DNA from: Oopsacas minuta
Lineage: Eukaryota; Animalia; Porifera
NCBI GenBank assembly: GCA_024704765.1
Contig: JAKMXF010000350.1
Location: 38,913-102,912 of the forward strand
Length of the DNA stretch: 64,000 nt
Direction of reading: 5' to 3'
Both the position numbers and the translations under genes were made by a program. The notes beneath the pieces were generated by a model. The model saw nothing but the letters and a program-made list of their open reading frames with translations. It did not search any database and was not told where the DNA came from. Of this stretch, positions 13,829 to 62,235 are shown one piece after another (the stretch's first letter is position 1; each line of letters starts with the position of its first letter).

Positions 13829-13842
13829 CTAATTTTGTGGAA

Positions 13843-18905: not shown

Positions 18906-18922
18906 CTGAAATATGGGTATAC

Positions 18923-33285: not shown

Positions 33286-35442
33286 ATTCTAACTTTTGAA
33301 TATCTATAGAATAAGATTATTATAAACAGTACAGTAAACTCACGTTATATCGAAGTACAAGGGACCGCGATAATTACTTCGATAGATGCCGAGTTAGATA
33401 TAACCAATAAGCTTAGGTTTGGGCGCTTGGGACCATATATTTGTACAATTTCACATTTAAACAGGGTTCAAGTTATCCGGTTCGATCAACGGAGGATATA
33501 ACTAGGCATAAATACAGCACAAAGCTGTAAGAAATAGAAACACTACCTATATCAACTTGAAAGTTTTCCTAAATTGTATAATAGAATAATTACCTGGAAA
33601 ATTGTAGTTGGGAATAGTTTCGGAAGAAAAAGCAAATGAACTAATAAATGTAATCAGACTATAAAGTTGAACTATAAATACTCGGGAAGATGAGACTAAT
33701 TTTAGGTTCAATCACAAAGTATCAAATAGCTAGGAATATTCTAGTTCATTATATGTCATAGAAGTTCGTATCAGTTACAAATGAGTTAGAAGAACTAAAA
33801 TTAAACTGTGAATGAGAAGAGGCTGCTTTTAGAATTGTGGTACGAAGCAGAAATAATGTAATCGAGAACTCATTTTATTTTCTTGAGCTAAAATTAGCAA
33901 TAAAACTATTACACAAACATCTAATTTCCTGGTCCTGTTTTCATAATATTCCTAGATAGTGGATTATTATGGATCTCTCCCAGTTATTGCAATCTAAGGC
34001 GCTCTTTAAGCCAATTATACACGATGCAACAAAGTTGCATTCAAAAATTAACATACACGATGTATGTTGGGCTTTACAAATAGAGATTAGAGGTGAGTAA
34101 GTACTTGCGGTTAAGTTAGTTCTTTGCTTATTGGGGATAGATCTAAATAGATTTAGGATAATTATATAATATAATACTCTATTGTAACTATGCAGTGCTC
34201 CCATAGGCTCCTAATAGAAATAATGTATTTGAATACATTGTGTAAGTGTGTAAGAGGCCATAAAAAATCATAATTCATATGGGAATCCTACGGGATATCT
34301 TGGAGAATTCCAATAGAAATTCTTGCCTGTCAAAGAAGGCAGCATTTTGACATTTGATATTCGACGGTTTGTATATTAATATGAGGGGCTTTGTATATGA
34401 ATTATACTTTGCATACGTCTTAATATTCGTTACTCTAGTAAAATAGCTTGGCAAAACTCGGTTGTTTTACACATTATAAATTGAAAATACTAAAATTACT
34501 TAAATATCCTCCTAAGAAACCTAAAAAACCTCAAGTTTTACTTAACCACCATCTACTACCCTCCTAGGGTAACTAATCCTAAATATTTGTGAAACGAAAT
34601 ATCAACACAAACCAAATAACATCTCATCAACTCTTTACCTTGGTAGCAGACACTGTTAATAAAAATACGGTCAACTCCCGTTAAATCGAACACGAATATA
34701 TCGAAATACCCGCTTATTGTACGAATAAGGTCACAAACCTTTACATTTCATTGGTTATATCGAAGTAATTATCCCAGTACCTTGAGCTTCGATAATAACG
34801 ATATAACGGGCGTTGATTGAAAGTCACAGCAATACATCATTATGACAATATCATGTACTTAACTATCTATTCATCATTAATAGCGTGTAACTTTACACAA
34901 ATCTTCGTATAAATTAATTAATTCTGATAACAACCAATTTCTTAGAAATCTGACTCTCTCAGTAATTCAATTGCAAATGAAATATTAGCTTTATACAGTT
35001 TTGTAAAATAACAATTACGTAATAGATACACACTCTGGTTAATTTTGACCATGTGGAGTCATTTTAAAACAATAATATATACCTGCAGATGTTTTGTTCG
35101 GATTAGCGAGAGTTTGAATTAAAGAGATGAGGTGTAAGCACTACTGACCCTAACATTGTCTTGAATACGTTAATTGTTATGGTAAACCTCACGATCATAT
35201 ATTGAATGGTTTAGAATTCATGATTACAAAAGTTGAAATTGCAATGGATATGAACCATCTCCTTACACCCCATTCACCCCCGCCCCGCCCCCTAGTTACG
35301 CCCCTACTATGGTTATACGTACTATGGCTAAGAAGTTGAATATCTACCCTAAAATTCTATTTTATTTACGTTATTAAGTATAAATAACAACAAATATACA
35401 TCTAATAAGTAATTGTAACACTACAAAGTCGTAGAATCGCTG

Positions 35443-38824: not shown

Positions 38825-39548
38825 TCAAGTCGTGAATAAAGTCTGTATACTAGTTTTCTGATTGTTCATAGCACTGCAGCGTTTAGATCTCGTTGTGTGT
38901 ACAGATTGACCACATCGTTCACAAGTCAAAATTCTTCGATAGTTTACTAAGGTTGGATCACTTTGAGAAGTTAATCTGACGAAGATATCCATATTATTGG
39001 TCTCAAAACTAACTTTACGAGCTAAATTCTCCCCATATTTTCTAACTAATTTGTTGCATGATTCTGTGCCTTCTTCTGAAAATGCCTTTAAGCCATAGCT
39101 AGAATTCGACTCACGTATTAACTCCTCGGAATGGGCCAAGAGCTTGTGCAGGGTTGGAGTCAAGCTAGCCCAGGGGAAAGAATCTAAGATGACAAGGTAG
39201 GTATCCTTGCACCACTTCCCCAATTCCAAAGTGTTAACCTTGTGACTTGAATTGAAAACCCGAAGAATGGCTGAAAGCTGAGTATGTATATTTGATAAGA
39301 TTGGGCGATATTGTATTGCTACAGTTGATAGAATGCATTCAAGGTATTCAGTTTCATCAGAAAAGGCTCTTCTAGCAACATTCCCTGTTGAGGTGGTTCC
39401 ACCGCTAGAATTAGGCTGGTCAACCTTTAATCCTGTCTTCTCCTGAATAAATGTTTGAAGGAATTTCATTGACTCCTTGATAACTGGTGAAGTTGGGGAC
39501 CAGGTAAACTTTTCGATGCGAAGATGATAAACCAGCAAATTGAACCAC
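38825..39548 (-). CDS. RAG1-like/Transib transposase, exon 2
   Basis: A 64-bp GT-AG intron (39549-39612) joins ...TGVFR|WFNLLVYHL in frame. HKLLAHSEELIRESNSSYGLKAFSEEGTESCNKLVRKYGENLARKVS aligns to RAG1 [43 protein letters not shown], which contains the third catalytic residue E962. There is a C-terminal CxxC...H...C cluster. Confidence 0.8.
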
Positions 39549-39612
39549 CTAAAATTGGTTTAATTATGTGAAGACAAATTCTGAATGATTAATGGAGTAC
39601 TAGATTACTTAC

Positions 39613-41042
39613 CTAAATACGCCTGTGTATGAATGAAGTGGAGATGCTGGATGTATGTTAATCTCTGAAATTGGTTGATGAGTTGAATTGAAGCGTTCAT
39701 TAGTCGAAAGAGCAAAGAACGACTCAATGTCATCAATGTGCGAAAATAACTCGATTGCATCTGTGATATTTCTGTTGATGGGGAACCCTTCAAGAACTAA
39801 ATTCCGGTCCTTCAAATCTTTATGTGTGGCAGTGCACATCTGACAACTGGCTCCTCCAGCTCCAGAGAGAATGGCTGCCATCTTCTTATCAAACATTGAG
39901 CGGATAATATCGACATTGACAACACCATTTTCTAAAGGAATCCCATTTTGCAACATCGCTATATCGGGATTAATCATAGTCTCCATGAAGGAACGAATAT
40001 TTTCTTCGCATTCTGTCGCAGCGCAGAGAAAAATAGGTCTTTGAGCGAAGGGTGAATTAGGGGATTTATTCTGCCAAACAATCCTGTTTGTTACAGTGTG
40101 GATGGAGATGGGCTTGAAACAAAACAGAATGAAGTTTTTGGTGAAAGTATTAGTTGTCTGCTGGTTGTAGATAGTGTGACAACCAGAACCATCTAAGCCA
40201 TCTGCGATTTTAAATGTGAGTGGGAATTCTTCACTTGTGGGGCGATCTACCATTGATAATATTCTTTCCAGGGTTTTCTGAACTTGAAGACAATATGGTG
40301 CGTGTATACCTATTAGTTTAGCTGGATTAGGATATAAAGTTATACTGGATCGCGAAATCATGACATCTCTCAGATTAGCTAGCTTGCTGTAAGATGGGAA
40401 ATGTATATTGTCTGGTAGAAGTGTTTGACGTAATTGAGTGTATTTTCGTCTGCCCACTTCAAGTAAATCTAGCAGGAATAAGGCTTTATCAACTGGAACA
40501 TGCTTGTTACTGAGGTTACAGAATCCTCCACTGACAATAATCTCTTTGGCCACCGTAGCAACCTGACGATTATTCTCCTCATTTGCCAATAGTTGTAATG
40601 AGAGTGCTGCAATGCTTATTTCTGTAGTATTCTCAATAACTGAGAGTGACTTAATGCATTCTAGCGGACTTGACAATCGAGTACGCTGTTGTTGCAGAGA
40701 GAGATCATCAAGATGCTTTCTATGACTCACTGAATGAATGGGAACTTCACCATCATCAGAAGACGACTCTAGTAAATCAGAAACACGATTTTTCTTTAAC
40801 TCAGGTTTCATGGAAATGTTAGAATGCCACCATTCTCCTTCTAAACAATCTAAAGATCTCTTCGCCTTCTTGAATCTGTCCCGAATTCTTAACAGCAACG
40901 TTTCCAAGAGTTTCGTATTATCAGAGTCTATTTCAAAGTGTTCTTTGAAATATTTTGTCGTTTTCAAGATACAATTATTATTGTCTTTCAGGATTCTTGC
41001 CAATTCGAGGCGGGACTTTGGGAAAGTTAACTCTTCTGTCAT
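39613..41042 (-). CDS. RAG1-like/Transib transposase, exon 1
   Basis: ADGLDGSGCH matches the RAG1 ESCDGMGD first catalytic Asp region. GGASCQMCTATHKDLKDRNLV matches RAG1 [22 protein letters not shown] (zinc C-x2-C). The first ATG is MTEELTF. The exon ends at donor AG|GTAAGT. Confidence 0.8.
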
Positions 41043-42402
41043 TGTTTTCAAGAAATTACGAAAAATATGTTGTATTATTCAGTAGATTATATATATAAGT
41101 CACTATAATAAATTTCAAGAACGAAATTCAATACTATTTCATTCCATTGTTGCAGTATGCTACAATGGGAATTTCCTAGCAACGAAAAGTTGTAATGGAA
41201 TGTCATTGAAAATTATAGGTTGCGCACTGTTTCGGGTTTTGTGGTTTTAGATTACGTTTTTAGGAATCGTAATGCGTGTATCCGATTCATTTTGCGCTGT
41301 TGTTTTGTGTTGTTTATTTTTCCTGACACTTTAAGTATTCCTCTTTGTAAAAATTCTGTATGGATTTTACTAGATTTTAGAAATCTTATGTTCACGAAAT
41401 GTATACAAGATACGGTCATGGAAACAAGATATTTAGAATTAGCATAGTCGAAATATATAAAGTATACCAGATTAGTAACATTCGATTATGTAATTGCTCT
41501 TACAGGTTCATTTGAAATTGTGGCTAAATTTGGAAATCATGAAGCCGCAATTTTCCTATAAATATTTTGCATCTTTGATGAAGAAATTTTACAGCTTCTA
41601 GGGTCTCAATCGCTTAGATATTTTAAATGAGAATCATTTAAACAATATAAAATGAAAAGAAACCATCAAATACGGAATCAATTTTTTGTCTATTCTTTGC
41701 TTCTAAACCACTGTGTGGTCATATGTGAGGAATGCACCACCAAAATCAATGTACCTCTCCGCACCAATATTAGTTGCTCCTGACGTCTCTGTATCATAAT
41801 ACAAACAGAATGTCAGTAATGTAGTATTGCTTTTAGCAGATGAACCTCCAATATCAAAAAATGAAAAATGAATATCATAGACATAAGTCATATAATAAAC
41901 GTAACGGTTCCGAATATTTAGTACCTAAGTCAGGGAGTTATACAGGTTATTAGGAATACACTGCTCCCAAATTTTCATACTCTTAAATCAGTAAATTAGT
42001 GTTATTGTACAGTGGATGCCGGTTATAAGGACACTTCATATAATGTTTTAAACACATGTGGACATTATTATAGAAAACTGTTCTCATATATATTGTATAA
42101 TTTATTCCGATTTTACAAACATACCGGTAATAAGGACCAATTTTATTACTATTCTAAGAGCTGACTCTTTGAATTAAGAAGTGAAGAGACCGAGGTTCCC
42201 CCGTGACTTGTTTTATTCTGTTACCTAAATCTTTACAATTTACAAGTCCACTGAAACTAAACATATCTCAGCAATTTGGCGAGAAATCCATAAAATGGGA
42301 CACAAACGATAATGGAAAAGACCCAGCTGAACTAAGGAAGACAAGTAGAATTTGAAACATTCGATTGATAAACAAAACCAATAAACAATGAAAATGATTA
42401 AA

Positions 42403-46282: not shown

Positions 46283-46884
46283 TTATGAGGGTAAGCTAGT
46301 ACCTGGCCTGTAATTAATGAGGTAGCCTGGATAAGCTAATCCATTTTCGTATAGAATATATACCTTAGTACCAGCTGGGTGTATGCCAGTTACAGAGTGG
46401 TAGCCTTGTCGAGGTCCAAGTAACTCAGAATTAGCCTCCTCATACCTTGCGTTTCCCACAAACACTTTAGAGAGAAACATAGAACAAATACCCGTGCTGT
46501 CCTTATAAGCGAGACCATGTGAGTATGAAGCATTTTGTGCGAAATATATCCCTCTACCCCACATACCCTCCTTAGCATACTTAACATTAAACCCTACAGG
46601 ATCTTGTATGATGACCTCAGGATCTGTGCTAGAGGATCCATGGAAAAGTGGTTTGATTAAAAGTGTGTTTTCTCTAAAATTCGAACTTCCATCATCACCA
46701 TCTTGAGGCTCAATTTTTCTCTTAATATTCTTAACAAAATTGTCCCAGCATGTCTTGTGGTGTATCTTGAGTACAGTCATTATCGTAGCATTAGGTAGAG
46801 TATTCATAAAGTTTCTAGCTACAGCAGAATATTCATCACTATCTGGTAGTAATTCTTCTTTAGTCAGGGTCGGGTATAGATCAA
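46283..46884 (-). CDS. PARP-family mono-ADP-ribosyltransferase catalytic domain; 5' end unresolved
   Basis: PARP catalytic signatures LFHGSS (His), WGRGIYFA (Tyr) and VYILYENG...YLINY, with Val at the PARP1 E988 position. That is an H-Y-hydrophobic triad typical of mono-ARTs. The ORF has no ATG until residue 33. A pyrimidine-rich acceptor, ctaccccaatctag|TT, suggests an unresolved upstream exon. Confidence 0.55.
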
Positions 46885-47036
46885 CTAGATTGGGGTAGAG
46901 CAATTAATATTGTTACTAATCATAAATGTAAAAAGTACACACGATTAGAGCCTGCTAGCCTGAGGTCGAATTATTATCTAAATTGACGGCAGTCAGCAGT
47001 ATTTTTGACTTTAGGTAATCTATAGCTAATTAGCTA

Positions 47037-47366
47037 TACCTATTATTAAATATCAAATGTTATTCGTCTGAGTGTTTGTCCGTTGTCAAGGAAAGGATTT
47101 ATGGTATGCTATTTGAATTCGTATTTTGCAAAACCCAGATGTAGTAAAACTATGACTTTATCGTGTTCACCAAATGATTCAACACACTTTACCCCAGTGT
47201 AGCTTTTTGAGAGCATGTACGTCTCTCATGTATTCTGAGATGGATCGAATTTGTTTACTTAATAATCATAAACGAAACAATAAAAATAGTATGCCATAAA
47301 TCCTTTCCTTGATAACGGACAAACAAGCAGAAAGACAGACAACAATTGAGAATTAATAATATAGAT
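47037..47366. mobile_element. MITE family A, complete copy with ~70-bp terminal inverted repeats
   Basis: The 5' end tattattaaat...gtttgtccgttgtcaaggaaaggatttatggtatgc and the 3' end gcataccataaatcctttccttgataacggacaaac...aattaataatatagat are reverse complements of each other. Confidence 0.75.
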
Positions 47367-47386
47367 AATGAACGTGTAAATATGTA

Positions 47387-50300
47387 TTAACCAACTGTGG
47401 CCCCAAAGGAGCCGATTTTATCGCGAAGCGACTGGCCCAAGCCCCATAGTTTAATAATAAACAATAAATGTTCCTTACAATTCTCTATCTGTGTCATCAT
47501 GAGAGATTGAGCTGTAGGCTGTATCCATATCTTATCGTCTTCGCTGAACATTAATTCTTTGAAAGTAGGAAATTCAGATTTCACAATTCCTAATATGTCA
47601 GACGTATTCTTAATAGCTTCTCTCGCAGTGGTAACTGAAATATGCTCCATTGGTATACAACAACCAATCCCTGGTGTCATTAACGGATTTTTAGCATTTT
47701 CATCAAAGTTTATCAGAGACACACAGAGAGAACTGAAGTTGTTATAAGCTATCGTAGATTTGAAAAATATCTTGACAATATCCAATAAGATGTCTAGGTT
47801 CCTCTGACAAGATATATTAGCCTTGTTGTATTTGTTAATATAGAGAATAGCAATACAAGTCTTCATTGCACACTCAAAACAGTTGGCACAAGCGTGTGGT
47901 GGGAATATTGCACCATCAGCCTCCTCACAAACTAACTTCTTAGCTGCTCTCAAATCGCATTGAGCCGTGCGGATCCATAGTTTTGCAATGAATTTATCTT
48001 CATTTGAGATTACAGCAGAGATTGTATTAGAGATAAGTCTTATAGGAGGAGTGTGAATTATTTGTAATAATGTTGCTCTTGTTACACCAGCTGGACGAGT
48101 AGCTGTCGGGTAATGAGATGTAGAAGTACTGCTTGGAGTGAGTCGTGATGAGCTAATGGGTGTGGTACGCATTACCAAAGATGTGGAACTTTTCACCGAT
48201 GGTAGGTTAATATCATCGATAAATGGACAGGCTTGTATGTTAAAGGAGTCTAATTTCTTCATAATATCACAAGTATTATCACAAGATAAACATAGTTGAA
48301 GAGCAAATAACATATCACTGAATATATTCCCAAAATGTAGATTTAGTGCATAGGTCAGGTCATGGAAGAAATTCACGTTTTTAATATTTCCACCATTTGC
48401 ATATAAAACTGAGTTTTCAATAAAACAATCGTAAATTCCATCTTTGGTAATTACAGCACCACCTGCAACCTCAGTGATTTGCATTGAGAGCGTAGATACT
48501 ATTGTGATTGATAATTTTTGTAAAATTTGAAAACAAGTCAAATACAGAGGATCATTTGCAATCCCTGGTTCCTTAGAGATATCCTTTACATTACCATTCT
48601 TTATACGAATTAGACTTAGATCGCCTTTTCCATCAGCTATGTTGGAATGATAATAAATACGAATTAGTCCTTTAGCAAATTCTCTACACTTAAGCAAGTA
48701 TTCCATCTCAAGACACTCATTTCTATACCGTGATATCGTGCCAGCATTCTTTAAAGCAGGATCTAAAGTCGCACTGATAATCTCACTCAAGTGTTTAATT
48801 TTGAGAGAAACAGGTGGTTTACATGACCCCAGAGAGTTCGGAGGTAATTCAAGCAAAAACTGAAGGTTGGAAAGACTCGGGAAACTTTCTATATGTATCT
48901 TAAGTCTTGTATTATCAATATATACTACGTTAGGTATAGGGACAATTTCATAAATATCAGATAATACCATTGTGTTCAGAGGATCTATATTAATAGTACA
49001 GTTAGACTGTTCTGCTTTCCTTAGGGTACTGATAAACAGTTGAAATGTTGTTTTACTAATCTCCTTCCTCTGTTCATTTCTCAGAGGCCTATCATGGTAG
49101 ATATCATTCATAACAGCTGCGTAATGAAAATAATCAGCTGATTCACTCACTCCTACAAGTTTCAGAAATGCATGATAACTCTTGAGAGCATCTGGAACTT
49201 TGAATAAATACTCGAGTATTATCGTGTTTAATGAAAATACCATGTTCCTGGGATAGAACAGTTTGTTTTCATAATAAATGCATTTAATATTGGTAAACTT
49301 GTTTTTCAAATTTTGACTACAATTTTCTTGTAAGAATCCATAAGTTTCAATGAATAAATTGTCCATAATTGAGTGATGATGAACGTGAATTTCGTTAAAA
49401 TTATCACAAATCAACTCAAGATGGCTTATAACAGTTTGTATGTCAGGTTTGGAACGGATATTCAGATATAATTCTGTATTATATTTTTTAGTGTATGTGT
49501 AACAATCGGAAACTAATGGATTATGGATATGTGTAGCCATGCAGCAAGAGTATTTGAATTCACACAACTCAGCCTTACTAAAGCTCGATATTATTTGAGT
49601 ATTTGCACTAGAGTTTGGGATACATTTCCAAACAGGTAGGAATTCAATTTTAGATAATTGTTGTAGTAGAGATGTATTATGAATATTCAAATTAATACCC
49701 TTAGATATCAACTGAGCTAGTGCAGATAGAGGTACAAGATAATCACTTGATGTGTAGATAAATTTTCTACTTTCTATCTTCTGGGCAGCTGTGAGTATTG
49801 ATTCTAGATCTGCTTTATCATGCAAGCCAAGATTACATAAAATCTGAGAACAATTTCTATAACCATAAGTGTTAGACCATTCATTGGGTAAGAGGTCTTC
49901 TGAAAAGAATATTTTGAACAATCCTACTTCTGGTGAATAGCAGTCACTGACTAATCTATTTCTATGAATAAACCTTACAGATTTGAGTTTATGAATAAAA
50001 TCCATTTCATAAGATGTAGGAGTATTTTGAATAAATAGAAGTAATTCTCTTTGCCCATTAATGTCAAGTTGTGTAAAATATCGCAAGACATAGACTAGGA
50101 AGAAATCACTCTCAGTCACCATGTGTATTCTAAGAGTTTTTGCGATGTGTTTAATAAGTGCTTCTTGTTTTTTAGAAGCCTTAAATATTGTAACTCTTTC
50201 GTTAGTTAGTTTGTTGATCAGTAAGGCTCCAATGTTATATGTAGAATTGTGAATGTAAAAGTTATCAAATTGAGCTATACAACACAATACATCTTGGTGG

Positions 50301-53300
50301 GATAAAAATATCTTCAGTAGAGAGATTATCCTTATCTCCTCACTCGTTAACTCATTTAACTTAGTATTAGGCAATAGATTCCTCAGTGAAGTAGCCTCGC
50401 TCTTATCAAATCTCACACATTCTATATTAATGTCAGATAGTTTTACTGCTGATATGAATAGAGGGAAAGTTATAGTACTGGAGATGACTAGAGGCTGTAA
50501 ATACATTGCTAGCGTACTCACATCGAAATCATCTTTAGCTAGTTTGTCTAGACATAATACATAACAATTCAGTTTAATCAAGGAGCTGTATAGCTCTTTA
50601 TTGGAAGATGCGTTACTTGAGGTATTGAGTATAGCAGGTAGATTTGATATCAACGTATACTCTCCAGCAGGGTTATTCTTAATAGGAACTAAAGGAAATT
50701 TCCCAAATTTCTGTATTAAATCATAGGATTGGAGTCCTGATTGAAGTATGAATTTCCAAAACAAACAACATTCCTGTAGCTGGAATTCCTTAACTTCTAA
50801 ATTATTCGATAAATAATCAGGTGAAAGTTCTTGCATAAAACCATGCGCACATAGTATTTGTATGCTATTGATAGGAAATATAGATGAAACAAACATTCCA
50901 GCACGATGAGGAAGTAGACTCCCGTATGCAGGCGTGAATGTAGGTTTAGTTTTAGTAAAATGTCCCAATCCTCCATTAAAATCAATCTTTAATGGAATTT
51001 TCTGAAATAATAGAATACATTCAGGTTTGGCTGAGAACAGATATTCTAATAAAATATCTATTTCCTTCATACTTAATATGAGAGCATTAAAAGCAGTATA
51101 TTCAATTCGGTTGAGGAATGATAGTAAAATAGTTTGATCCAATCTAGTTAGGTAACATGAAAATTTCTTAAAACTGTGATAAATGTGATCTGGGGCACCA
51201 GTTAAAGGTAATCTCAATTTCTTGAGAGTTAAATATAGTGAGTCTTGCTCTAAAGAGTGTTTCCGACTCTTACTAGCAGACAAAAGATTATGTGATGATG
51301 AGATACCAGATAATCTTCTAGAGCTATCTGGGAATATTCCTCCATGCTCTCCATGTAGAGGATGCAAACGCTCATAGCATCCGCTGCTGATGAGTATTTT
51401 CTCATTACTACTATACATTAGAATGTATAACTCCTTACATAGTGCGTATAGGAAGTTGGTATACACTTGATTACCTTCAATAAGTTTACCCATGTCTGGG
51501 TATAGAGAGTAGTACCAGTCGTAGTAATCAGAATCTATAAAATTTGTTAACTCAGTATCCGCTCTACTCTTTAGATAGATAAGTAAAGAAGCAAATAGCG
51601 GTGCTATCACGTGCTGGATAATAGATGAATGCCAAACATCTTCCCACTCCAATTTTTCAGGAGAATCTCCACTCACATCTCTGAAGCGAATGTGCTGTCT
51701 CTCAGGCTCAAGGATAAAAGGAGCATTAATCAGAATTGGAAAGTTCACAGATCTATCATCCCCTATCGGGAGATAAGAATACAAACAGCTTCCTCCTGTT
51801 GGTGTCCTGCAGCTTGCATCAGTTGGAACATGTACCGCTATTCCACCATACACTTGATGAGTTAATTTTTCTCTCTCATAAATACTTTTGTATTTAGTAA
51901 TTTGAGGAGAACATTTTTCTAGATCCTTCATAGACCCTTCATGCGTGAATAGGATCCATGAAGATGTATGTGGATAGCTTCTATTTCTTTTTCCAAGAAT
52001 ACTAACATTTGGTTGATTTGGTGAGATTGTTGTAAATTTTTCATGTATTATTTCTCTTTTTGTAATCTGTATAGTATTCAAGAATTTACAATTGAGTGAA
52101 ATTGGAGGTGGATATGGATTCAGGGGGGTAACCAGTAATTTAAATGTACCCATCATAGTTGTGCTATCTTTATCACGTTTGTAGATTGATATTCTCTGAA
52201 TATTATTTAAAAAGAGATTGAAATTTGACGAGTTTTTAAGAAAATCAGATAATATTTTCTCGACTTCAGTTTCAATACTAGATTCCATAATAGGAATTCT
52301 AAAGATAGTATAATCTCCATTGGTTAAGGTAGGGAATGTATTAGCGGATGTAGTGTTGAGAGATTCTAGAGAGTATGGAATAAACTGGTCAGGGAATTGA
52401 TCTATGTTTTCTGACTTAAAAGTAAATTTCATTCCAGGTAAGTTCTGAGGAGGGAGTATTAGGAATTTACGAAAAGGATCAAAAATACAAAAATAAATTT
52501 CTCCACCGTTATTCCTTCGTGTTAGTAAACAAGGAGAATCAGTTAAATTATAAACAGCATTAAATCCTAGCCCAAATTTCCCAATCGTATGGCTGTCCTT
52601 TTTACCACCAAGACCAACTGACTGTATTCCTTGTAAATCTTTATCACTGAACGTACTATTGTTATACACAAGTAATGATGTATACTGCTGGTATTTGTGC
52701 CAGTTTGGCTGTTCATTCTCGCTCAAACATAGGGTGTTAGTCCTAGAAGAATATTCTGTAGTATCTAGTATAAAAGCTACTTCTGTTGCTCCAGCATCTT
52801 CTGCATTCTGTAACAGCTCTTTGAGTATTGTAGTACCACATGGAAATGCTCGCTTAAGGCCTCTAATTCTATCAGCGATATCTTCATACTGTCCAAACTC
52901 TTCAAACGCAGAACTTGTGTAATATTCACTTCGCTTACTCCTTGCACCGAGATTAAAGGCTGCTATCGGGTGAATGCGTTTATGAACTGTATTGGATCTG
53001 TTCAGAGAGGGAGGGTATCCTGTCTCCTCCCAAGGCATATCATTGATCACTAATTCACAGCCAGGGCACAGTTGTAATTCTGTTGAGAGGAGAACTTGTT
53101 TAGGATTGTTAGAAAATAGATATTTTTGAACATTATGGAAAAATAAATTGGTGAGTACAATAATAAGATCAATAAGGAGTTCGTCATGGATATTAGAATT
53201 CTCTCTAGCAATAAGATGTAATATCCTGTGAGCATCTGTTTGTGAAATATTTTCCTTTATTTCTAATCTTTGTAAGAATGATTCCCTTAATCCCTTATTC

Positions 53301-56300
53301 TCATAATTCAGTTTGTAAGGAAATGTTAAAAGGAATTTACAACTGTAATGAGAGAATTTCTCAGAACTGACTATATACGATGTATGACGAAATGATCCAG
53401 AAACTGGATGCCAAATGTAATTAAGAGTTTCTATAGAAACGGCAGGATCGTTTACCCAGTGTTTGAATATGGTAGTGTATATATTTTCTGCCCTTGCTGA
53501 TAATTCATTTTGAAGATTAAAGGAATGAATTTGGCCTTCTTTTTCTCTCAAGCTCTGTAATAATGAGGCGAGTGTGCGAATATTAATAGATTTCCATGCT
53601 TCGCGGATAGACAGGAATGTTTCAATACATTTAAGTTTGTCCACTTCTTTTGTAACAGCGTAACAATTTGTAGACATGAGGTACCGTAGGTCATAAGAGT
53701 AACATTGACTCGGACTAGCAAACTGAGTACATCTTTGTAATCCTAGTCGTATGAGAAATAAATCATTCCAAACAGGAATTAATTTAATGTTCACTAATTT
53801 GCTTTGTATCAATTTTAAATCCCTGTCTTCGTAGCCAGAAGGAGATGATGAAGACATATTGTTAAGATACTGAAGGATAGTCATACAATGTTCAAATCTT
53901 CTTGGATTTAAGAAACTTATCTGACATTCACAACGTTCAATGAGATCTGATACTGGTAATGTATTCTCAATTATTTTTAATATCTTCAAAGCTTTGTAAT
54001 GAATTGTTTTTGGTGCAAATAACTTGTCTAAATCTGGATGAATAGTTCTCTTATCACTAGGACAATATAGTCTAGCTACAGGTGAGCGGGGGCTAATTAC
54101 CTCTGAAGGTTCGAGAAGTGAGTAATCTTCTCCGGCACCACACGGAATACATGGTACATTAGAGAATAACTCTTTGACCCAGTTTTGAGATCCTTTGTGT
54201 ATAACTGGTAACAAGGATGTGAGTACTAGTTTAATATCTGGGAATGAAAATGTAGAAAAATTAGGGAAAATAACTTCACGACAAATTCTTTCCAAACTAA
54301 AAATCTTGTCTTTATTATTTTGCAAAATAATATGAAATAGATGAGTTGATTGTAAGCTAATACCTAAGTCTACTAAAGATATATTAAATTGTAAACATTT
54401 TCTTCTAGCAAAGTTATAAAACTCTTTCAAAGAATTGAAGTCGGAATAATCCTCATAAAATATAAAGTTAGCTTCATTATAACCAATCCACTCATTTCCC
54501 AAGCCGTAATAGAATAGAGGTGTATCAGTATTCATGACTCTAATAGCAAATGCTTTAGGAAATTCTCTCCAAATGATTAAATGAGGTTGAGCGTTGAGAG
54601 GCCACAAACGATAGAACTCATATATTTGTTCTTTTCCTTTAGAAAACTCCCCTCTTATTTGAACAAACAAATTGATAAATGTATTTACAAGGCTGTCATT
54701 GACAAGAGCTATATTCCATGTAGTCCTGTCACTACCATCCTCAGTACATGCTATTCCTCTTCTAGATTGATCTAATGCAAAACACCCGTTGATGTACATG
54801 GGATAAGGTGAAGTGACAGGTAGAGGTAGATAACAGTACATGTAGTAGTTATTTTTCTTTGGAGGAGATTTTCCTATTGAATTAAGGGGAAGTGCAACTG
54901 AAGTAACAGGCATGTAATTTGATATCTTTCTATGCGAATTTTCCTCCAGAAACTCTATACATTGCTGAATTCCAGTCGAATAGGAAATAATGAAACTTTT
55001 TGATTCCTTTCCTGAAAGTCTTTCACATGTGATAGTAACCTTTTGATGATGCACAACAGGTGTAACATTAGGGGTAGTCAATAACTCGTCAAAATGAGCC
55101 AAGTTTTTAGAAATAAAAGTTTCATGAAGTTCAAATGGCTGTGTAATTTCCTTTTTAGACACTTTCAGAAGCAGAACTGGTTTCGAAGTTAGTGGTTTTT
55201 CGTATATTTCAATACATTTAATATGCTGAAGGAAACGAATGCTTGATTCAGCTTCCAATAATATCCGTGATTTTAGTTCCCCTATCGCAGAGCTATTATA
55301 GACAGTACCGGATATATCAGATGACACAGTACGGAATGGTAATCGAAAGAGAGTTCCATTGAATGGTTCAGGATCAAAAACATCACAGCCAAATAATTTT
55401 AGGTTAAAAACACTGAATTGATCTCGAAACTCAAACGTTTCGGTATTGTTAAGTACAAAATCGACCTGAATACCTGGAGGGTTACTTCGATGAAGAAACT
55501 TCCTATTAGGATCCAACATGTGTATATACCTCCCACTCACAAAACTAGGTAAATCTGTCAAATGGTAAACTGTGTTGAAACCTAATCCGAATTTTCCGAT
55601 TTTCAATTTATCTTCAAGTTTCGTTTCACCAAAAATTTCCATTATGTTATCAAAGTCAGCATCTGTGAATTGTGCATCATCATAGAAATACAAAGCAGGA
55701 CCTTGCCATTGCTTCATTGTAGGCTCTATGAGTGAATCTGTAGGGAAACTATTATAATCAATGAGAATACGGGCTGTATTAGCTTTAGCGTCATCTGCGT
55801 TCTGTAATAATTCCTTGTAAACATCAATATTTGATTCATATTCCTTTAGAATACTACGTAACCGGGTGGTTAACTCTTCAAACTGACCTTTGAATTTAAA
55901 GAAACCCAACTGATCACCCAACATTGTTAGTTTAAATGATGTGGCTCCAAATTTTAAAGCAACAAGTCTAGATATATTGGAGTTTACGATAAAATACATC
56001 TTATCATTTTTATTAACTTGAGATTCCTTTGAGGATTGTAAAGGATTGTCATATACCACACACTCGGTGGCTAAATGAAGCAGATTATCAACTCCCAATA
56101 GGAAATGATCGCTAAATGATTGAGTCTGAGAATTATAGAGACTATGGATTATGTTAAGGATGAGTTTTACATTATGAGGTCTAGAATCCATAGATTGGGA
56201 TTGATATAAGGTATCCAAAATCTGGTATAATTGATTATCAGAGAGAGATTCATTTGCTCCACAGTTTTCGAATAATTTCCAAGCAGCTTCAGAGTAATTC

Positions 56301-59300
56301 AGCTTTTCAAAGGAATAATAAAATGGCTCTAGAGAATAATCTAAGTTTCTAGCAACTAGTTTCGCTTCAATAAAACTATTTGTATGTTTCACATACACAA
56401 AATGTGTTACTATCTCATCTATCACTGTTAGGATAGATGGTGAAGAATAAATTCTATTTAATAAAGAGTGAATCCTTTTTGGGTCGGATGAGTGGATTGA
56501 TGTGAGTGAAATTTTATTTAATTGTTCAGCCATCATTCCACCTGTTACTTCAGTATTACAATTGAGATGATTCAGTAGTTCATTAGATTGATTGTCTTGA
56601 TAAGATGGGAAGAATTGTACACATATCCTTACACTGGCAATAAGGGAAATATCTATATCGTTACAGAACACGACTGACTGTAGTTGAGTTAACTTACGTT
56701 CTCCTAAGAAGGGTATACATTTGGGGTAATCACCAGGACGAGTATATGATGGTAACACAATACTACTACTCAACAGGATTCTAGAAATTGGATCAGTGTT
56801 AAGGTTTGAACTTTTCCAGCAAGATGTAACAAATTGAAGAAGTGTAGAAAAACGTTTTCTCCATAATTCATTGCAATTAGGAACATTAATATCCAAATGG
56901 AAATAACATACAGCTGATTGTGTAACTGCTTCAAACATTTTCTGATTAGTTAGTTGTGTGGAAATGAAAAAAAGTTCCAACTTCTTTGCCATGTGAAAAT
57001 AATCTTTGTAGTCTTTATGAACGAAGAAATTAGATTTAGAAGGTAAGAGTATTTTTAACATATCATCATCAGGATAGAACAGCTGATTAGGCTGACGATA
57101 GTTACAAGGTTGTGATATGGAATTTGAATTGTCTACAATCCATTTAGTAGTTTTCAAAACCTGAATATTTTGATAACTTACTTTATCCAGATTGTTTAAC
57201 AGCCATATACTCAAATTAAAATGTTGAACAAACATATTAGTCTCAATCATAACTTGCATGAATGGTAATATATTATTTATAAGGAAATTGTTAAAATCTG
57301 GAGCAGTTATACCCAACTTTCCATATAACGTATTTACATTGTAGATATCTGGAGATAGAAAATTAGCTGGATACTGAAACTGTGAGGGAAGGTAAATATT
57401 ACCTGGTACTCTCACAAATGTAGATACAGCGATAGAAATATGATTCCCGTTAATAGTCGGGAATATTGGGAGCTTCTTAATTAATTGTATTTGATTATTA
57501 GTAAATCGGGAATCGTTGTTCAGAATATCGATAATGAGTTCGAAAAGTTGTTCATTCGTATCTTTTCTGAGTTTGTTAATAAACGTATTTAAGATGTTAT
57601 TGTTTGTCTGCAATAGAGTCAATAATCCATTTGGAATAGGACTAAGGACTAAACTATCTAAACATTCGACAAATTTATGTGAGTGTATAAATACACTCCC
57701 ACATTCTAGCAGTATATTCTCTAAGGGTTTGCACTTATCACCTGTAGAACATTGAATGTAATTGCTACTAGTATTAGATGAAACAATAGGCAAGAGTTGG
57801 TTATTGATTGAATACAAGTCATGCGTTGGGAGCAAGGGTAGATCACCTAGGGATCTAGCAAGGTTCTCATCAGATCCTATAAAAGACCATACGAGTTTTA
57901 TCCAGGATTTATTGAAGGGAAAAAAGTTAGGATTCCATTTTAATGGGGGGGTCGTAATCATAAAATGTGATTTTATTGATAATTCGAATAAACGTTTCAA
58001 TAAATCTAAATCTGTTTTGATGTTAGATATATCTTTGAGGTTAATCTTTCCTTTACATGTGTGAGATAACATTAAGATACGAGAATATATTTCAGTAGGT
58101 ATACCTCGATCTACAAATGAGCCTTCTGTTCCAGGGAAAAGGTTAACAAAATCAAAAGTATCATCATAAACATAATAATAAGTTTTTGGATTAATAGAAA
58201 ATTTGAAAATATGTGGAGTAGCTACTTTCAAAAGTGGGATACTATCAAGTTGATTCGAAAAATTACTATTATGAACTGTAAAGTCTGATAAAATGAAATT
58301 TAGAATAACAAATGTATGATCTTTAAGATTTGCAATAAAAAATACATTCAATGCAGGATTATTTGAGTGTTTCACCAACAGCTGACGAAGTAGAGCGGGT
58401 GTTACTCTACGTCTATCAATATCATTCTTAACAGAATCTATTCTGTTAAATAAAGTTAGGATAGTTTTAGGAAGAAGGACTAAGGGTTCTTTTAAAAGTT
58501 TCAAGAGCTTTTCTAACGGGCAATTAATATTAGTATTAACATCAGATAGGTATATTCCTTCTTCAATTTTAATCCATTCATTCGTAATGCAAGAATATAC
58601 AATTTTCTCATTCGCTAAAATCCTTAATCCCTGGTCAATTAATATAGAGGATTGCTTCTTCAACGTACTTGCTCCCAGCATTTGATAATGGTAGTTACCA
58701 GGGTTGCCATGATGAAAAGAGTTGAGGAGAATACTGTAGAAGATAGCGTAAGCACTCACACCAAGCTGTTCTATCAATAATTTATTCCAAGTAGAGTCTG
58801 TGTCTTGTGAGTCAACACTCGGCCATTTGATTTGACGTCTGTCATTTGACAAAGCAAAGTATCCATGTAAATTAAAAGGTAGATCTGTAGGTTCAGGAGT
58901 AGGAAGAAAACAGAATAATTTACCAGTATCAGCTGATAGTTTATGATTAAAACGAACTGTTAAGTGAAAATTAAAATTTTCAAGAATTCTATAAATAAAA
59001 TCCAGAAGGTTATTTCCGTCCCAATCATCTTGGAAGTTCATAGCTTTTGATGTACCAAGTTGATCACTTGTTATACCAGTTTCCATTGCTATTCCTATCC
59101 ATGGTAGATAATTAAGGTTACTCTTAGAATAAAATTCATAAAGTTCAGTTTGTGATTGAGGAAATCCGATCATATTTAAAACGAGCCATACTTTATCCTC
59201 TCTGCTATTCAATGAAGAAATAGGAAATAAATTTATCGTCACTTTGATAGATTTGTGAAAATTCTTTTGCTCAACATGATTTGATAGTAATCTATTAGAG

Positions 59301-59721
59301 TACACTACGTCATCAATATAATTATTTGGTATGTTAATAGAGAATATCTTCTTCGTCTCAATTCCAGATTTTGTGTAAAGAGTAATTGACTTAATATTTT
59401 TAAGAAATATTAGAATATTACTAGATTCCTCTTGCAAAGGTTTAAATAATTTAGCCATAACACTATCAGCTGTGTATAGCCCAGCTGGTTTGATTTTAGA
59501 TTTTGATTGTTTGTTTCGAAGTGGAAATCTGAATATTGTCCCGTCATACTTACTAAGGCCATTATAATCGAAATAAGAACGGAAACAATTCTGATGAGCA
59601 GAATATACTGGATCTTTAAAGAACTTTTTCAGTTTTATTCTCTTCCCCGGTTCATTAGGATATATCTGTTGCTGTGGATCCAATATTCCAATACTGTTAT
59701 TACTCAAAATCATAGGGACAT
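47387..59721 (-). CDS. SACS: Sacsin-like giant protein, terminal 12.3-kb exon (HSP90-like ATPase sacsin-repeat modules 2 and 3, HEPN-like C-terminus)
   Basis: 4108-aa uninterrupted ORF. It contains LLQNADDAKANTARILIDY and ILKELLQNAEDAGATEVAFILD with downstream GKFGLGFN motifs (sacsin SRR). Acceptor ttctattctgaatag|AT continues the frame as ...ITD-VPMILSNNSIGILDP, matching sacsin ITDVPCIFSGDQIGMLDP. Confidence 0.85.
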
Positions 59722-60055
59722 CTATTCAGAATAGAATAAATAAATTATCATAACAATATCACTGCTTAGACCGTAAAAAAATACACTTGCCTCCTATCAC
59801 AACTCGTTCCCACCCAACCAACGAAATTAATGTGCAGTGTACACGACATATCCAGATCCCTGGTATGCGATAGAATATGAAGGATAAACTATCAACTGTA
59901 TAGCTTGATACATATACAATACTTAACCATAGCTAATACATGGCTATTCCTAATATAAAAATACGATGCTGTTCCCTGTTCATGACAAACAATGGATGAA
60001 ATACAATAGTAATTTACTATGCATGGCTGAATTATATAATATACTATCATAATAC

Positions 60056-60314
60056 CTGTAATATGATAGACAGCTACAAATCCCAATCCAAATCTACCAA
60101 CTTTCAAAGTTTCTTCTACTTTACCACTAATCCCAATATTCCTGATCCCCTCCCAATCACGTGTTTTGAATTTAGCATTATTCCATGAGTATAGAGCTTC
60201 TCCCTGATACAATGAACATACAGGCTTTATAAGATTAACACAGCTGTGTTTAGTGTAATCTAGAAGGAAAGCTACCGAGGTAGCTTCTGCATCATCTGCA
60301 TTCTGTATTATCTC
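60056..60314 (-). CDS. SACS: Sacsin-like gene, exon 3 (first HATPase-like module)
   Basis: EIIQNADDAEATSVAFLLDY...LKVGRFGLGFVAVYHIT. It is flanked by acceptor atctatctag| and donor ACAG|GTATTA, and the phase is consistent with its neighbours. Confidence 0.75.
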
Positions 60315-60770
60315 CTAGATAGATATCAATAATTGAGTATAATGACATGCTTCAAAAATCACAATAATAGAGTTTCAAGTTAAAATAAATATACGATATA
60401 AGAACGAGAATCTGAATATCGAATTCATTGTTTGTTATCAAAGCGTTTGGATAAGGTATTACATGAGTAATAGAGGTTGTAACGTAAAAGCATCGGAAGG
60501 GTTAGGATGGTGAGATTACTACCAAATGATTCAAGGTATGAAGTGAGGTAGAATCCGTAAAGCGACTATTTGAGGGAATTTACAATGCTACATGCTCCAG
60601 CTAGAGATAAGTGGACACTTGGTCCTCGGTAAGTTCGTAGCTAACAATTCTCTATGAAAATTGTATATTGAGTACTTATACTAACTTACTAAGTAGTAAT
60701 AGTTAGAATAAAACACAAAAATCGCTATGGAGGAATTCAGGACAGCTTTCTACACGTAAATAGTACATAC

Positions 60771-60862
60771 CTTCAGGATTTGACTCCCATCTGGATAACT
60801 GTTAAGAATACCTTTAATATACTCTATTAGAGGAGGAGTCCTCTGGCCAAAGTCTCTCTCAT
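60771..60862 (-). CDS. SACS: Sacsin-like gene, exon 2
   Basis: ERDFGQRTPPLIEYIKGILNSYPDGSQILK matches the sacsin N-terminus [28 protein letters not shown]. Acceptor ttctgttcacag|, donor AAG|GTATGT. Confidence 0.75.
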
Positions 60863-62159
60863 CTGTGAACAGAAAATTATCAATTTAGGAAAGTACTAAA
60901 ATAGAATAAGGGGAGTCGGACAATTTGGGCTAGGGCGGGATTAAGAGAAGTAGGGGCCTAAGCCCAATTATTGATTGGCCACCCATCACAATTTGAATAC
61001 ACTGACATCATATCGTGATAAATTCATATGAAAAATTGATGGCTAATAATTTGTAACTGTATATAGGGCCAGCCATTACTAGCCTAGTTCACGCAGCCCA
61101 ATAAGAGCCCTGCAGATGGATAAGTCCTGAAACGGTGGTTATCCAAAAGTTGAGGGCCAGTAGCTGAGCCGGGCATTTCTAGTGGGGATAATTCATCAGG
61201 GTCCTAGGAGGCCCCCCAGTGGGGTCTAGGAGCGCAGCCTGAATAAGACAAGCTATAATTAGTACGTATAAAATTAGTTCCCTTTGTACTGTCACATAAC
61301 TTCTATACTTGTACATATGGTTACTACCCCATAACCTTCAGTCCGTAGATCAATTCAAGGTATTTACGAGGTATATACGAAGTATATACCTGAGATTTTG
61401 GTGAAATAACATGATGTTAAGGGTAAAATGTGAGCGAAGCGGGCCCAAAAATTTATTGTTTGTAATTTGAGCTCAATAACGAAACAATTGAATAACATGA
61501 ACATTCCAGATAGTGTATAAATATCCTGAAGGGTTACATCCTCCTAGAGGATCCGCCACTGGTGGGGCACCCTAAGGGTGGGGGCCTAAGCCATGACTTA
61601 GTTGGCTTATAGGTTAATCCGGGCCTGACTACCGCGAGTTGACTCTGCCATTATATAAAATGTATAGGTGGGTGCTGGGTAGGCATGACGTCATCTCTGT
61701 ACACCCAGCTCATGAGCTTAGTTACGCCAATAGTTGGCTATCACCAGGCGTATCTATTTAAAGTTTAACCCATGATATTTGAGAGGAAATTTAGTAGAGA
61801 CTCCATGTAACAATATGGTAATAAATATTGTGCTATTTGGGTTGCTGCCATTTCAATAGCTAATGCAGAGCAGAAAATAAATGAATTGAGTAGAGAAGAT
61901 TAGAAAAAACTAACTTACCCTCACTGCTAGAATCACTTGATTCATCATCTAGAAGAATATAATATGGTATATGTAATATTATTCTATCGTTAAGTCAAGT
62001 AATATTTTAGTAAAAATCGTCACCCATGACTGAGTTTTATTTAGGTTATAGGATCTTTTCTGACCAACACAGAATTTGTTACAGATAGAATAATATAATT
62101 TGTGTTGATAATGAGTAATACAAGTAATAGCCGAGCTGAATTATAAATGATATACTCAC

Positions 62160-62235
62160 GAGATATTTGTTGGCGTTTTGGATTATCTGTTGTTATAGGT
62201 GCATCTCTTTTTCTTCGGGATATGTTCTCAGCCAT
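62160..62235 (-). CDS. SACS: Sacsin-like gene, putative exon 1 with start codon
   Basis: ATG-initiated MAENISRRKRDAPITTDNPKRQQIS ends at consensus donor C|GTGAGT. Its phase (1 nt) matches the 2-nt start of exon 2. There is no homology support; it is assigned by splice-signal and phase logic only. Confidence 0.45.

Follow-up and report, generated by a model that had tools for sequence, protein, structure and literature searches.

The minus strand of a 64,000-nucleotide stretch of Oopsacas minuta DNA (the window; contig JAKMXF010000350.1, positions 38,913 to 102,912) contains a giant sacsin-like open reading frame (ORF), which raises the question of where the gene holding it ends and what kind of protein it encodes. 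A sequence-only reading had proposed four exons, the last being a single 12.3-kb exon, and a product with a HEPN-like C-terminus. In the explanation put forward here, which we regard, taken as a whole, as probable rather than firm, the locus from 62235 to 46283 (−) is one sacsin-family gene with a product of about 4433 aa that ends in a PARP domain. The gene is already present in GenBank, where the deposited protein, named 'Sacsin-like', has 4433 aa; its model was predicted by BRAKER/Augustus, with hints from RNA-seq as a guide.

The giant ORF at 47387..59713 was found with the predicted length of 4108 codons (4108 aa). The four exons proposed earlier (62235-62160, 60862-60771, 60314-60056 and 59721 onwards) have GT-AG borders throughout and, joined in frame, encode 4253 aa, and the intron sizes of 1297, 456 and 334 nt agree. 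The count of four exons did not hold, the deposited model having six coding exons, or five if a 30-nt exon is skipped; P0001 was mapped to all six, including the giant one, at 100% identity using tblastn. Coding exon 1 (62160..62235; 76 nt) starts with the ATG at 62235 and ends in phase 1 at C/GTGAGT; its N-terminal peptide, MAE(N/R)xSRRKRDAP..KRQQ(I/L)S, is kept in the relative L001, as is the phase-1 donor. The predicted, frame-preserving 30-nt mini-exon (61919..61948; DESSDSSSED; flanks ttcttctag/ and /gtaagt) is part of P0001 and the deposited model and was absent from the earlier proposal. L001 and L002 yielded no counterpart of it, and in L001 exon 1 appears to be joined straight to the DFGQ exon; the mini-exon may be a cassette exon. 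Coding exon 3 (60771..60862; 92 nt) ends at a phase-0 intron (QILK/E) and coding exon 4 (60056..60314; 259 nt; EIIQNADDA...GRFGLGFVAVYHIT) at a phase-1 intron (HIT/D), both of which lie in the first sacsin repeat module and are shared with Lineus (a nemertean) and with SACS of skate. The 5′ exons were assigned to the sacsin gene, and not to a separate one, on account of their conservation in two relatives. The giant exon (47479..59721; 12,243 nt) encodes residues 153-4233 of the 4433-aa product and is followed by the last intron (46885..47478; 594 nt; phase 1) and the terminal exon with the PARP catalytic domain (46283..46884; 602 nt including the TAA stop), all on the minus strand. The O. minuta genome averages 1.59 introns per gene (PMC10280926); single-exon genes neighbour this locus.

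In the deposited protein, the giant ORF is left at a GTAAGG donor (between 47479 and 47478), 31 codons short of its stop, for the PARP exon, which lies beyond the region first considered. The donor, AAT T/GTAAGG, was found in the window and also, at the same position and in phase 1, in the two relatives L001 and L002 (identities of 53% and 44%), and protein similarity with both ends exactly there. The read-through tails of the three genomes are unrelated, short (8-31 codons), and alike only in their first two residues (CK), which the donor sequence fixes. The acceptors are phase-compatible in the same three genomes, with F as the junction residue in 3/3, and L001, L002 and L006 each have a same-strand PARP ORF further downstream; for P0008 and P0009, one was found on a contig of identical size. 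Three SACS domains and PARP are encoded within one ORF in P0014, a more distant relative, and SACS and PARP in a single uninterrupted ORF in P0152 (2722 aa). In the window, the first 25 codons of the PARP exon are free of ATG, but conservation extends into this part as well. We conclude that the giant exon is penultimate, because its conserved donor splices to the PARP exon.

These data bear on the model in which the giant exon is terminal, translation stops at 47387, the 4253-aa product ends soon after HEPN, and the downstream PARP is a separate gene merged by automatic annotation. The ORF does reach that stop, the four exons do join in frame, ORF-based gene calls in relatives list the PARP ORF apart, and a search for a transcript-derived protein spanning the HEPN-PARP junction returned none. 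Nevertheless, we consider this model very improbable, given the donor position and phase conserved across three genomes, tails that share just CK, a PARP exon conserved upstream of its first ATG and devoid of a conserved start codon, the uninterrupted SACS and PARP ORFs of P0014 and P0152, and the same layout in Amphimedon.

Less improbable, but still unlikely, is the existence of both forms, where retention of the last intron would yield a 4263-aa isoform ending after HEPN (or its counterpart without the 30-nt exon, itself alternative) and splicing the PARP-tailed one. Both alternatives keep the reading frame, the 30-nt exon is missing from L001 and L002, and the family has members, such as L007, that end at HEPN. 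Within the last intron, a MITE-like element with terminal inverted repeats (47041..47361; inverted repeat of 53 nt, 87%) was detected, whose repeat motif occurs in 7 copies in the window versus 0 expected; this insertion makes up more than half of the intron and could weaken splicing. Against this stands the tail itself (CKEHLL...ATVG, with the stop codon at 47387-47389), which is not conserved; the retained isoform would therefore bear a non-conserved 31-residue tail.

The terminal exon matched Pfam PARP (PF00644) above the cut-off (E 4e-17) and PARP12 in the PDB (2PQF; E 3e-12), and a Foldseek search returned PARP12/14/15 (E ~2e-8). The catalytic triad is H-Y-V, with H in LFHGS, Y in GIYFA and V in KVYILYE; His and Tyr, which bind NAD+, are conserved, and H-Y-V/I was found in 6/6 PARP-tailed homologues. 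The domain is of the mono-ADP-ribosyltransferase type, and its closest characterised kin are the PARP12/14/15/ZAP group. An exhaustive search revealed macro-WWE-PARP proteins to be its nearest non-sacsin relatives. In the literature, no paper describing a PARP-tailed sacsin was found.

The product starts with a short, charged segment. Three sacsin repeat units come next, every one of them opening with an ATPase domain of the Hsp90-like (GHKL) kind; they are followed by a linker rich in Ser and Thr, by HEPN in degenerate form and, at the C-terminus, by the PARP domain. The three sacsin repeat (SRR) modules anticipated from the letters were recovered with Pfam SACS (PF25794; E 4e-133) and the PDB structures of sacsin SRR1 (5V44-47; E ~5e-40). 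SRR1 (residues 36-300; 59279..60862, including two introns because it spans exons 3-5; Pfam SACS E 1e-66) carries the N-box KEIIQNADDA at 66, Asp at 119, GRFGLGF at 139 and the loop DRRQ at 446-449. SRR2 (residues 1436-1671; 55166..55873; 5V45 E 5e-40, self-match E 4e-35) has KELLQNADDA at 1455, GKFGLGF at 1528 and SRRG at 1805-1808, and SRR3 (residues 2427-2671; 52166..52900; self-match E 1.5e-28) has KELLQNAEDA at 2453, GKFGLGF at 2533 and ERQH at 2826-2829; all three modules lie on the minus strand. The motif G(K/R)FGLGF was thus confirmed in every module, while LLQNA(D/E)DA, likewise claimed for each, applies to SRR2 and SRR3 and reads IIQNADDA in SRR1. Residues for ATP binding and hydrolysis (N-box, Asp168 equivalent, GxFGxGF, catalytic-loop Arg; roles taken from PMC9880540) are kept in 3/3 modules; whether sacsin modules act as ATPases is itself a matter of debate (PMC9880540). 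Neither a UBL nor a J domain nor a recognisable XPCB was detected in the product by searches with Pfam, PDB and a vertebrate-sacsin profile, and the sole HPD (residue 2047) is outside any J-domain context; the sequence-only reading had seen no J-domain HPD motif. The Ser/Thr/Pro-rich linker (residues ~3983-4057; 48008..48232, −) sits where vertebrate sacsin has its J domain, and the profile skips its positions 3899-4168, the J-domain segment, at this point.

The HEPN-like domain proposed for the C-terminus is real (residues 4058-4202; 47573..48007, −; family HMM 30 bits, E 7e-9; alignment), but it is followed by PARP. Its AF2 model has a pLDDT of 82, and Foldseek ranked 1WOL, 3O10 (human sacsin HEPN) and 4NQF as the three best matches. 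Where the family has Arg, this domain has Lys (AKNPLMT) with no His after it, so that the Rx4-6H motif, intact in P0050 and P0082, is lost.

By homology, the three ATPase modules would work like those of vertebrate sacsin and provide an ATP-driven, chaperone-like scaffold to which client proteins bind. HEPN would serve dimerisation or nucleotide/RNA binding, and probably not RNA cleavage because of the lost motif. The output would be enzymatic and replace the Hsp70-recruiting J domain, with PARP mono-ADP-ribosylating the bound clients or its own protein. Architecture and family dynamics suggest stress or innate-defence signalling as the likeliest setting: the sponge family is expanded and tandemly clustered, and its C-terminal modules are swapped between HEPN alone, HEPN plus PARP, and Death, to which the literature adds TRADD-N (PMC3710099, PMC8195603); the PARP domain, moreover, is closest to the PARP12/14/15/ZAP group. 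Possible, although doubtful, is a housekeeping role for the same architecture, in which the protein would, in the manner of vertebrate sacsin, be a chaperone for proteostasis or the cytoskeleton, with PARP only regulating it. This would fit the collinearity with vertebrate sacsin over ~3950 aa, the conserved ATPase residues, the catalytic degeneracy of HEPN, as reported for human sacsin in PMC3710099, and the housekeeping genes surrounding the locus; it fits less well with several divergent paralogues (28-53% identity) and tandem clusters of family members, with module swapping that includes Death domains and HEPN whose Rx4-6H is intact, and with the PARP12/14/15 type of the PARP domain.

A neighbour-joining distance tree built from the best 111 matches (bootstrap 100 for the three main clades) placed the gene in a 19-sequence clade, presumably of glass sponges, that includes a second O. 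minuta paralogue, and vertebrate SACS in a separate bilaterian clade. Four giant sacsin-like ORFs were found on contigs each of 152,939 bp, presumably one contig, and a Dysidea member with a Death domain was among the matches. The proposed sacsin orthology stands as family membership, the vertebrate profile being collinear, but not as straightforward SACS orthology, given that UBL, J domain and XPCB were not found, the added PARP and the separate clade; sponges have several in-paralogues, this gene among them, that are together at best co-orthologous to bilaterian sacsins. The 'sacsin-like' P0054 of Amphimedon queenslandica (4699 aa) and its relatives P0050, P0082 and P0061/L006 likewise have three SACS domains, HEPN and PARP. 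The layout is also the same, with a giant exon (13.6 kb in P0054), a phase-1 intron behind it and then a PARP exon of ~590 nt; the junction is one codon off the O. minuta position in pairwise alignment, and the triad is H-Y-V. This group falls in a different major clade, however, and P0054 is without 5′ introns. Against the O. minuta PARP, Amphimedon-clade tails scored 73-80 bits versus 95-100 bits for macro-WWE-PARP proteins. Because they are less similar than these PARP14-like domains, it is not established that SACS and PARP were fused only once, in an ancient event common to sponges, and the Amphimedon-group fusion may have arisen independently.

The suggestion that the giant-exon layout is ancient was weakly founded on the O. 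minuta genome alone; direct comparison backs it, as Lineus and skate SACS have the two SRR1 introns of O. minuta at the same positions and in the same phases, and as all three, and Amphimedon too, have 11-13.6 kb of uninterrupted coding sequence. Introns are clustered (P ~2e-5 under uniform placement), and the layout, with introns at both ends only and ~12 kb of unbroken coding sequence between, appears, from this comparison, to go back to an early ancestor of the animals.

Vertebrate sacsin (SACS/DNAJC29, the ARSACS protein; PDB 5V44-47 for SRR1, 3O10 for HEPN) is matched by its profile to O. minuta residues 30-3982 (1088 bits); identity between the proteins is only 23-25%. Both have three repeat units, each with an Hsp90-like SRR and kept ATPase residues, followed by the HEPN fold, whereas the O. 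minuta protein is without UBL, J domain and recognisable XPCB and carries PARP on an extra exon; its giant exon begins ~500-570 codons earlier than that of SACS, at the HIT/D intron, and is not terminal. With the mono-ADP-ribosyltransferases PARP12, PARP14, PARP15 and ZAP/PARP13 (PDB 2PQF, 3GOY, 3BLJ, 2X5Y), the catalytic fold and the H-Y-(I/L/V) triad are alike at ~22-26% identity; these proteins have CCCH/WWE or macro domains N-terminally, in place of the 4200-aa sacsin scaffold of O. minuta. Sacsin fusions with Death and TRADD-N in sponges and other invertebrates were read as conflict systems in passages of Anantharaman et al. 2013 (PMC3710099) and Kaur et al. 2021 (PMC8195603), and these passages do not mention a PARP fusion. 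As described there, such proteins of the same multi-copy sponge family likewise combine the scaffold with an apoptosis, immunity or conflict-type module, which is an adaptor domain in the Death and TRADD-N fusions and a C-terminal enzyme, the PARP mono-ADP-ribosyltransferase, in O. minuta.

The minus-strand ORF of 4108 codons (47387..59713), which a sequence-only reading had described as the last of four exons of a sacsin-like gene, was present in the window. The three 5' exons proposed with it showed canonical GT-AG borders and introns of the lengths given in that reading, were joined in frame to the giant ORF to yield 4253 aa, and were kept in L001 and L002, the loci of two relatives, confirming them as part of the gene. 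Comparison of the 3' junction with these relatives, on the other hand, revealed the giant exon (59721-47479, minus strand, 12,243 nt) to be penultimate instead of last, with the gene running on to 46283. The protein deposited for the locus (P0001, 'Sacsin-like', 4433 aa; UniRef label 'Poly [ADP-ribose] polymerase'), a BRAKER/Augustus prediction with RNA-seq hints (PMC10280926), differs from the four-exon model in two respects, namely an extra 30-nt exon and an exit from the giant ORF before its stop. Its donor, AAT T|GTAAGG at 47479|47478, lies 31 codons upstream of the giant ORF stop, and the acceptor aatctag|TTGAT at 46884 opens a terminal exon that extends to a TAA at 46283.

Both L001 (53% identity) and L002 (44%) have a PARP ORF downstream of the giant one, in the same orientation. 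The donor T|GTAAG occupied the identical codon and phase in the window, L001 and L002 (3/3), and protein similarity among the three ended precisely there, the read-through tails being mutually unrelated (CKEHLL..., 31 aa; CKYIYLLL; CKFSKIISYLYLY). In each of the three, similarity restarted at a phase-compatible acceptor that creates a junctional Phe. In the window's PARP exon the first ATG does not occur before codon 26, yet conservation extends upstream of that codon. Furthermore, three SACS domains and PARP are encoded within a single uninterrupted ORF in the homologue P0014 (29% identity), and SACS and PARP likewise in the 2722-aa P0152, while the PARP-tailed sacsin-like gene of Amphimedon queenslandica (P0054) has a 13.6-kb exon followed by a phase-1 intron, aligned one codon away, and then by a PARP exon of 591 nt. 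A search for a transcript-derived protein spanning the HEPN-PARP junction yielded nothing beyond two separate genomic ORFs, and a shallow profile search with A1 gave 14 matches. As a practical lesson, a terminal domain exon can be missed when a giant ORF is read to its stop codon.

The extra exon of the deposited model (61948-61919, minus strand), encoding DESSDSSSED, has good splice sites. Neither L001 nor L002 yielded a counterpart, and in L001 exon 1 seems to be spliced straight to the DFGQ exon; the 30-nt exon is regarded as putative and unverified. In L001, the exon-1 peptide (MAERNSRKRDAPTKLKNAKRQQLS) occurs twice, at 1789-1860 and 4140-4211, 2.35 kb apart and upstream of the giant ORF, through a duplication of either the first exon or the promoter region.

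The presence of three sacsin modules was borne out by three Pfam SACS matches, the number of SRR domains over the curated threshold being three. On the giant ORF, PF25794 (cut-off 32.8) reached 443 bits over three stretches, of which one is an incomplete SRR1; the spliced N-terminus scored 225 bits. SRR2 matched PDB crystal structures of sacsin SRR1 with E ~5e-40, and the modules matched one another at residues 36-300, 1436-1671 and 2427-2671. With a vertebrate sacsin profile, residues 30-3982 were collinear in one stretch (1088 bits), including the SIRPT body beyond the SRRs. The N-box KE(I/L)(I/L)QNA(D/E)DA, the equivalent of human Asp168 and the G(R/K)FGLGF motif were kept in all three modules, and each contained at least one catalytic-loop Arg (DRRQ, SRRG and ERQH); the SRR3 loop ERQH has a single Arg, compared with RR in the other two. 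With lizard sacsin as the intermediate, human Arg474 corresponds to the second Arg in DNRR. With residue roles taken from PMC9880540, the GHKL/Hsp90-like ATP-site residues are conserved in all three modules at the sequence level.

For the C-terminus, which had been described as HEPN-like, the HEPN assignment stood as regards fold and homology, but the PARP exon lies C-terminal to it. Since neither Pfam HEPN PF05168 nor single-sequence phmmer against PDB gave a HEPN match in the C-terminal region, detection depended on an HMM specific to the family, a profile of the clade and a structure model. Residues 4058-4202 scored 30 bits with an HMM made from 63 homologues that carry a HEPN annotation. 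A two-domain model of HEPN and PARP (pLDDT 65) returned structure matches to PARP only, and the HEPN segment was therefore modelled separately, giving pLDDT 82 and pTM 0.80. The best three PDB entries in Foldseek were 1WOL (archaeal HEPN, TM 0.76), 3O10 (human sacsin HEPN, TM 0.71) and 4NQF (HEPN), with probabilities of 0.99-1.00 and E-values of just 0.01-0.1. Profile and model together identify residues 4058-4202 as a HEPN superfamily fold homologous to the sacsin HEPN. At the site of (S/T)RYP(D/N)..., the protein has AKNPLMT; because the family Arg is Lys and no His follows, the Rx4-6H endoRNase motif is absent from this HEPN. It is kept in the relatives P0050 (RYPNYH) and P0082 (RYPNYYH). 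For human HEPN, RNA binding has been reported (bioRxiv 10.64898/2025.12.18.694329).

The last exon scored 62.9 bits against PF00644 (cut-off 26.7) and matched PARP12 in PDB with E 3e-12. Its best PDB sequences and folds were PARP12, PARP14, PARP15 and ZAP, with Foldseek values for PARP12/14/15 of E ~2e-8 and TM ~0.65 (normalised to target length). The triad His was found in LFHGS and the Tyr in GIYFA, and the third position is Val, aligned to PARP12 Ile (KVYILYE vs SIFVIFE). The H-Y-E triad for poly(ADP-ribose) elongation is, thus, replaced by H-Y-V, and the third residue is Val or Ile in 6/6 PARP-tailed homologues. An H-Y-Phi triad is the pattern of the mono-ART class, and the domain is predicted to be a mono-ADP-ribosyltransferase.

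Ranked by PARP-domain similarity to this exon, the clade-A relatives came first (193-300 bits), followed by P0010, the second O. minuta paralogue (163), P0152 (120), P0014 (109), macro-WWE-PARP proteins (95-100) and the Amphimedon-clade tails (73-80). There is good support for a single SACS-PARP fusion inside the glass-sponge clade. A single ancient fusion for all sponges, which would give these and the demosponge PARP tails a common origin, received no clear support from the ranking. In the exhaustive search, the best match for the PARP exon was P0145 (1154 aa), which carries five tandem PARP catalytic domains, an unusual architecture. Among the homologues there was also a 6802-aa protein of the dinoflagellate Polarella glacialis (P0062) with SACS and PARP Pfam domains, which suggests that the combination is also present, or has independently arisen, outside animals.

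The proposal that the giant-exon organisation is ancient was supported, on better grounds than exon size, by shared introns and intron-free bodies. The O. minuta genome is poor in introns (1.59 per gene, PMC10280926) and the genes next to this one have a single exon, so that the giant exon alone would prove little. All five introns lie within the first 457 nt of the 13,302-nt coding sequence or at 602 nt from its end; under uniform placement, such clustering has P ~2e-5. Exact exon mapping of a sacsin-like gene of the nemertean Lineus and of skate SACS, and comparison with the sponge gene, revealed the introns QILK|E(I/L)IQNA (phase 0) and H(I/M/V)T|(D/E) (phase 1) in identical columns and phases in sponge, nemertean and skate, with a unique splice solution for each. 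Lineus and skate further have in common a Q|G intron (phase 0 vs phase 1, within one nucleotide) and a phase-1 intron directly before their giant exons of 11,085 and 11,565 nt; the sponge gene lacks these two bilaterian introns, and its giant exon consequently starts earlier. The phase-2 introns of Lineus and skate do not align with each other. A long intron-free body was present in every lineage examined, intron-rich ones included. The giant exon, so far a vertebrate curiosity, thereby becomes a datable trait with two intron positions shared from sponge to skate, and the question is raised why the intron-free body resisted intron gain for so long.

In a neighbour-joining tree of 111 proteins (3451 columns, 100 bootstraps), three clades were recovered, each with bootstrap 100. 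One, with 19 members, contains the gene under study, P0010 and P0014 and splits into three subclades, in every one of which a PARP-tailed protein occurs; another, with 58, includes the Amphimedon PARP-tailed forms; and a bilaterian clade of 34 unites hemichordate, mollusc, annelid and nemertean proteins with vertebrate SACS. With the 19-member clade holding P0010 beside it and the bilaterian clade separate, both at bootstrap 100, there is no one-to-one relation with vertebrate SACS: by these clades, the gene is one of several sponge in-paralogues, and it and SACS are at best many-to-many co-orthologues. The PARP tail is not universal in the family, as evident from L007, which ends at HEPN; in L006, SACS, HEPN and PARP ORFs follow in series, and another fragmentary SACS ORF (1-110) immediately precedes the gene. 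Four giant sacsin-like ORFs (P0028, P0069, P0070 and P0072) are on contigs of 152,939 bp each, presumably one contig, and several further pairs of such ORFs are on same-sized contigs.

A MITE-like element (47041-47361), whose TIRs of at least 53 nt are 87% complementary, accounts for more than half of the HEPN-PARP intron of 594 nt. The TIR motif CAAGGAAAGGATTTATGG had 7 occurrences in the window at up to 2 mismatches, compared with 0 expected, and related copies were found near 11821, 14030, 18980, 19470 and 44606. Two adjacent minus-strand ORFs of 480 and 237 aa (38825-41051), the second matching the RAG1 recombinase core of Pfam (PF12940) below threshold (E 2e-4, 19.9 bits, cut-off 25; profile positions 556-608 of 653), are probably a Transib/RAG1-like transposase remnant, split in two, in a glass sponge. 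A two-part unit is tandemly duplicated at 12246-15222 and 17158-20611 on the minus strand, where a RING-finger ORF of ~190 aa is followed downstream by an ORF of 548-588 aa that gave no Pfam match; the second copy has a PGMQGQ(Y/H) repeat insertion, and the units may be a TRIM-like gene pair. The neighbours major vault protein (KAI6646902), DDX52 (KAI6646905) and bystin (KAI6646901) were exactly matched; the bystin/MVP stretch (28001-34000) has a GC content of 0.40-0.44 compared with ~0.31-0.39 across the rest of the window, and the MVP protein shares a 90%-identity cluster with sequences found in other sponge data, Vazella pourtalesii among them.

What was observed directly is the architecture, together with the conservation of both the ATP-site and the NAD-site residues. 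Mechanistically, the protein may act as an ATP-driven sacsin scaffold whose output would be mono-ADP-ribosylation, not Hsp70 recruitment, while the HEPN domain could serve dimerisation or nucleotide or RNA binding. As for its biological setting, a role as a housekeeping chaperone is a serious rival to one in stress or defence. The stress or defence setting is favoured because the family is multi-copy and tandemly clustered (the 152,939-bp contigs and the L006 upstream fragment), because its C-terminal modules are exchanged (HEPN, HEPN plus PARP, Death), because the PARP domain belongs to the PARP12/14/15 type, and because the literature already ties sacsin-like proteins fused to Death and TRADD-N domains to conflict systems (PMC3710099, PMC8195603). 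A GenBank record already exists and the domain content is visible in databases; no paper was found on the sacsin-PARP architecture, nor on SACS intron conservation beyond vertebrates. We tentatively propose, while considering it rather doubtful in its entirety, an undescribed class of sponge giant effectors that combine the sacsin triple Hsp90-like ATPase scaffold with a mono-ADP-ribosyltransferase and a HEPN domain (sometimes RNase-competent), serve innate defence or stress signalling as ATP-driven sensor-effectors instead of being J-domain co-chaperones, and retain a SACS layout (5' introns in SRR1, then >11 kb of intron-free coding sequence) already in place in the last common ancestor of sponges and bilaterians.

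The molecular function of sacsin, a 520-kDa protein implicated in human disease, is not yet clear. The present data suggest that the sacsin scaffold is a general ATP-driven platform for varied outputs (J domain, HEPN RNase, Death, PARP), which offers a useful frame for what the scaffold itself does. Vertebrate SACS is composed of UBL, SIRPT x3, XPCB, DnaJ and HEPN. In the sponge protein, PF00240 gave no match for a ubiquitin-like domain, only 35-45 residues precede FGQ, and in the alignment with skate SACS the UBL is without counterpart. XPCB had no Pfam or PDB match, although Pfam omits it for true vertebrate sacsins too; in the XPCB window, 13/72 aligned positions were identical, no better than for Lineus or Amphimedon. 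The sequence-only reading had seen no J-domain HPD motif, in agreement with the lack of a DnaJ match in Pfam and PDB, the sole HPD (residue 2047) being out of context; the J-domain segment of the vertebrate profile (positions 3899-4168) was skipped, and an 82-aa Ser/Thr-rich linker takes its place. In comparison with the sponge gene, in which neither was found, the UBL and the J domain between SIRPT3 and HEPN are features of vertebrate SACS; this deep-branching animal has kept the whole ATPase scaffold, with the Hsp70-recruiting J domain swapped for an ADP-ribosyltransferase.
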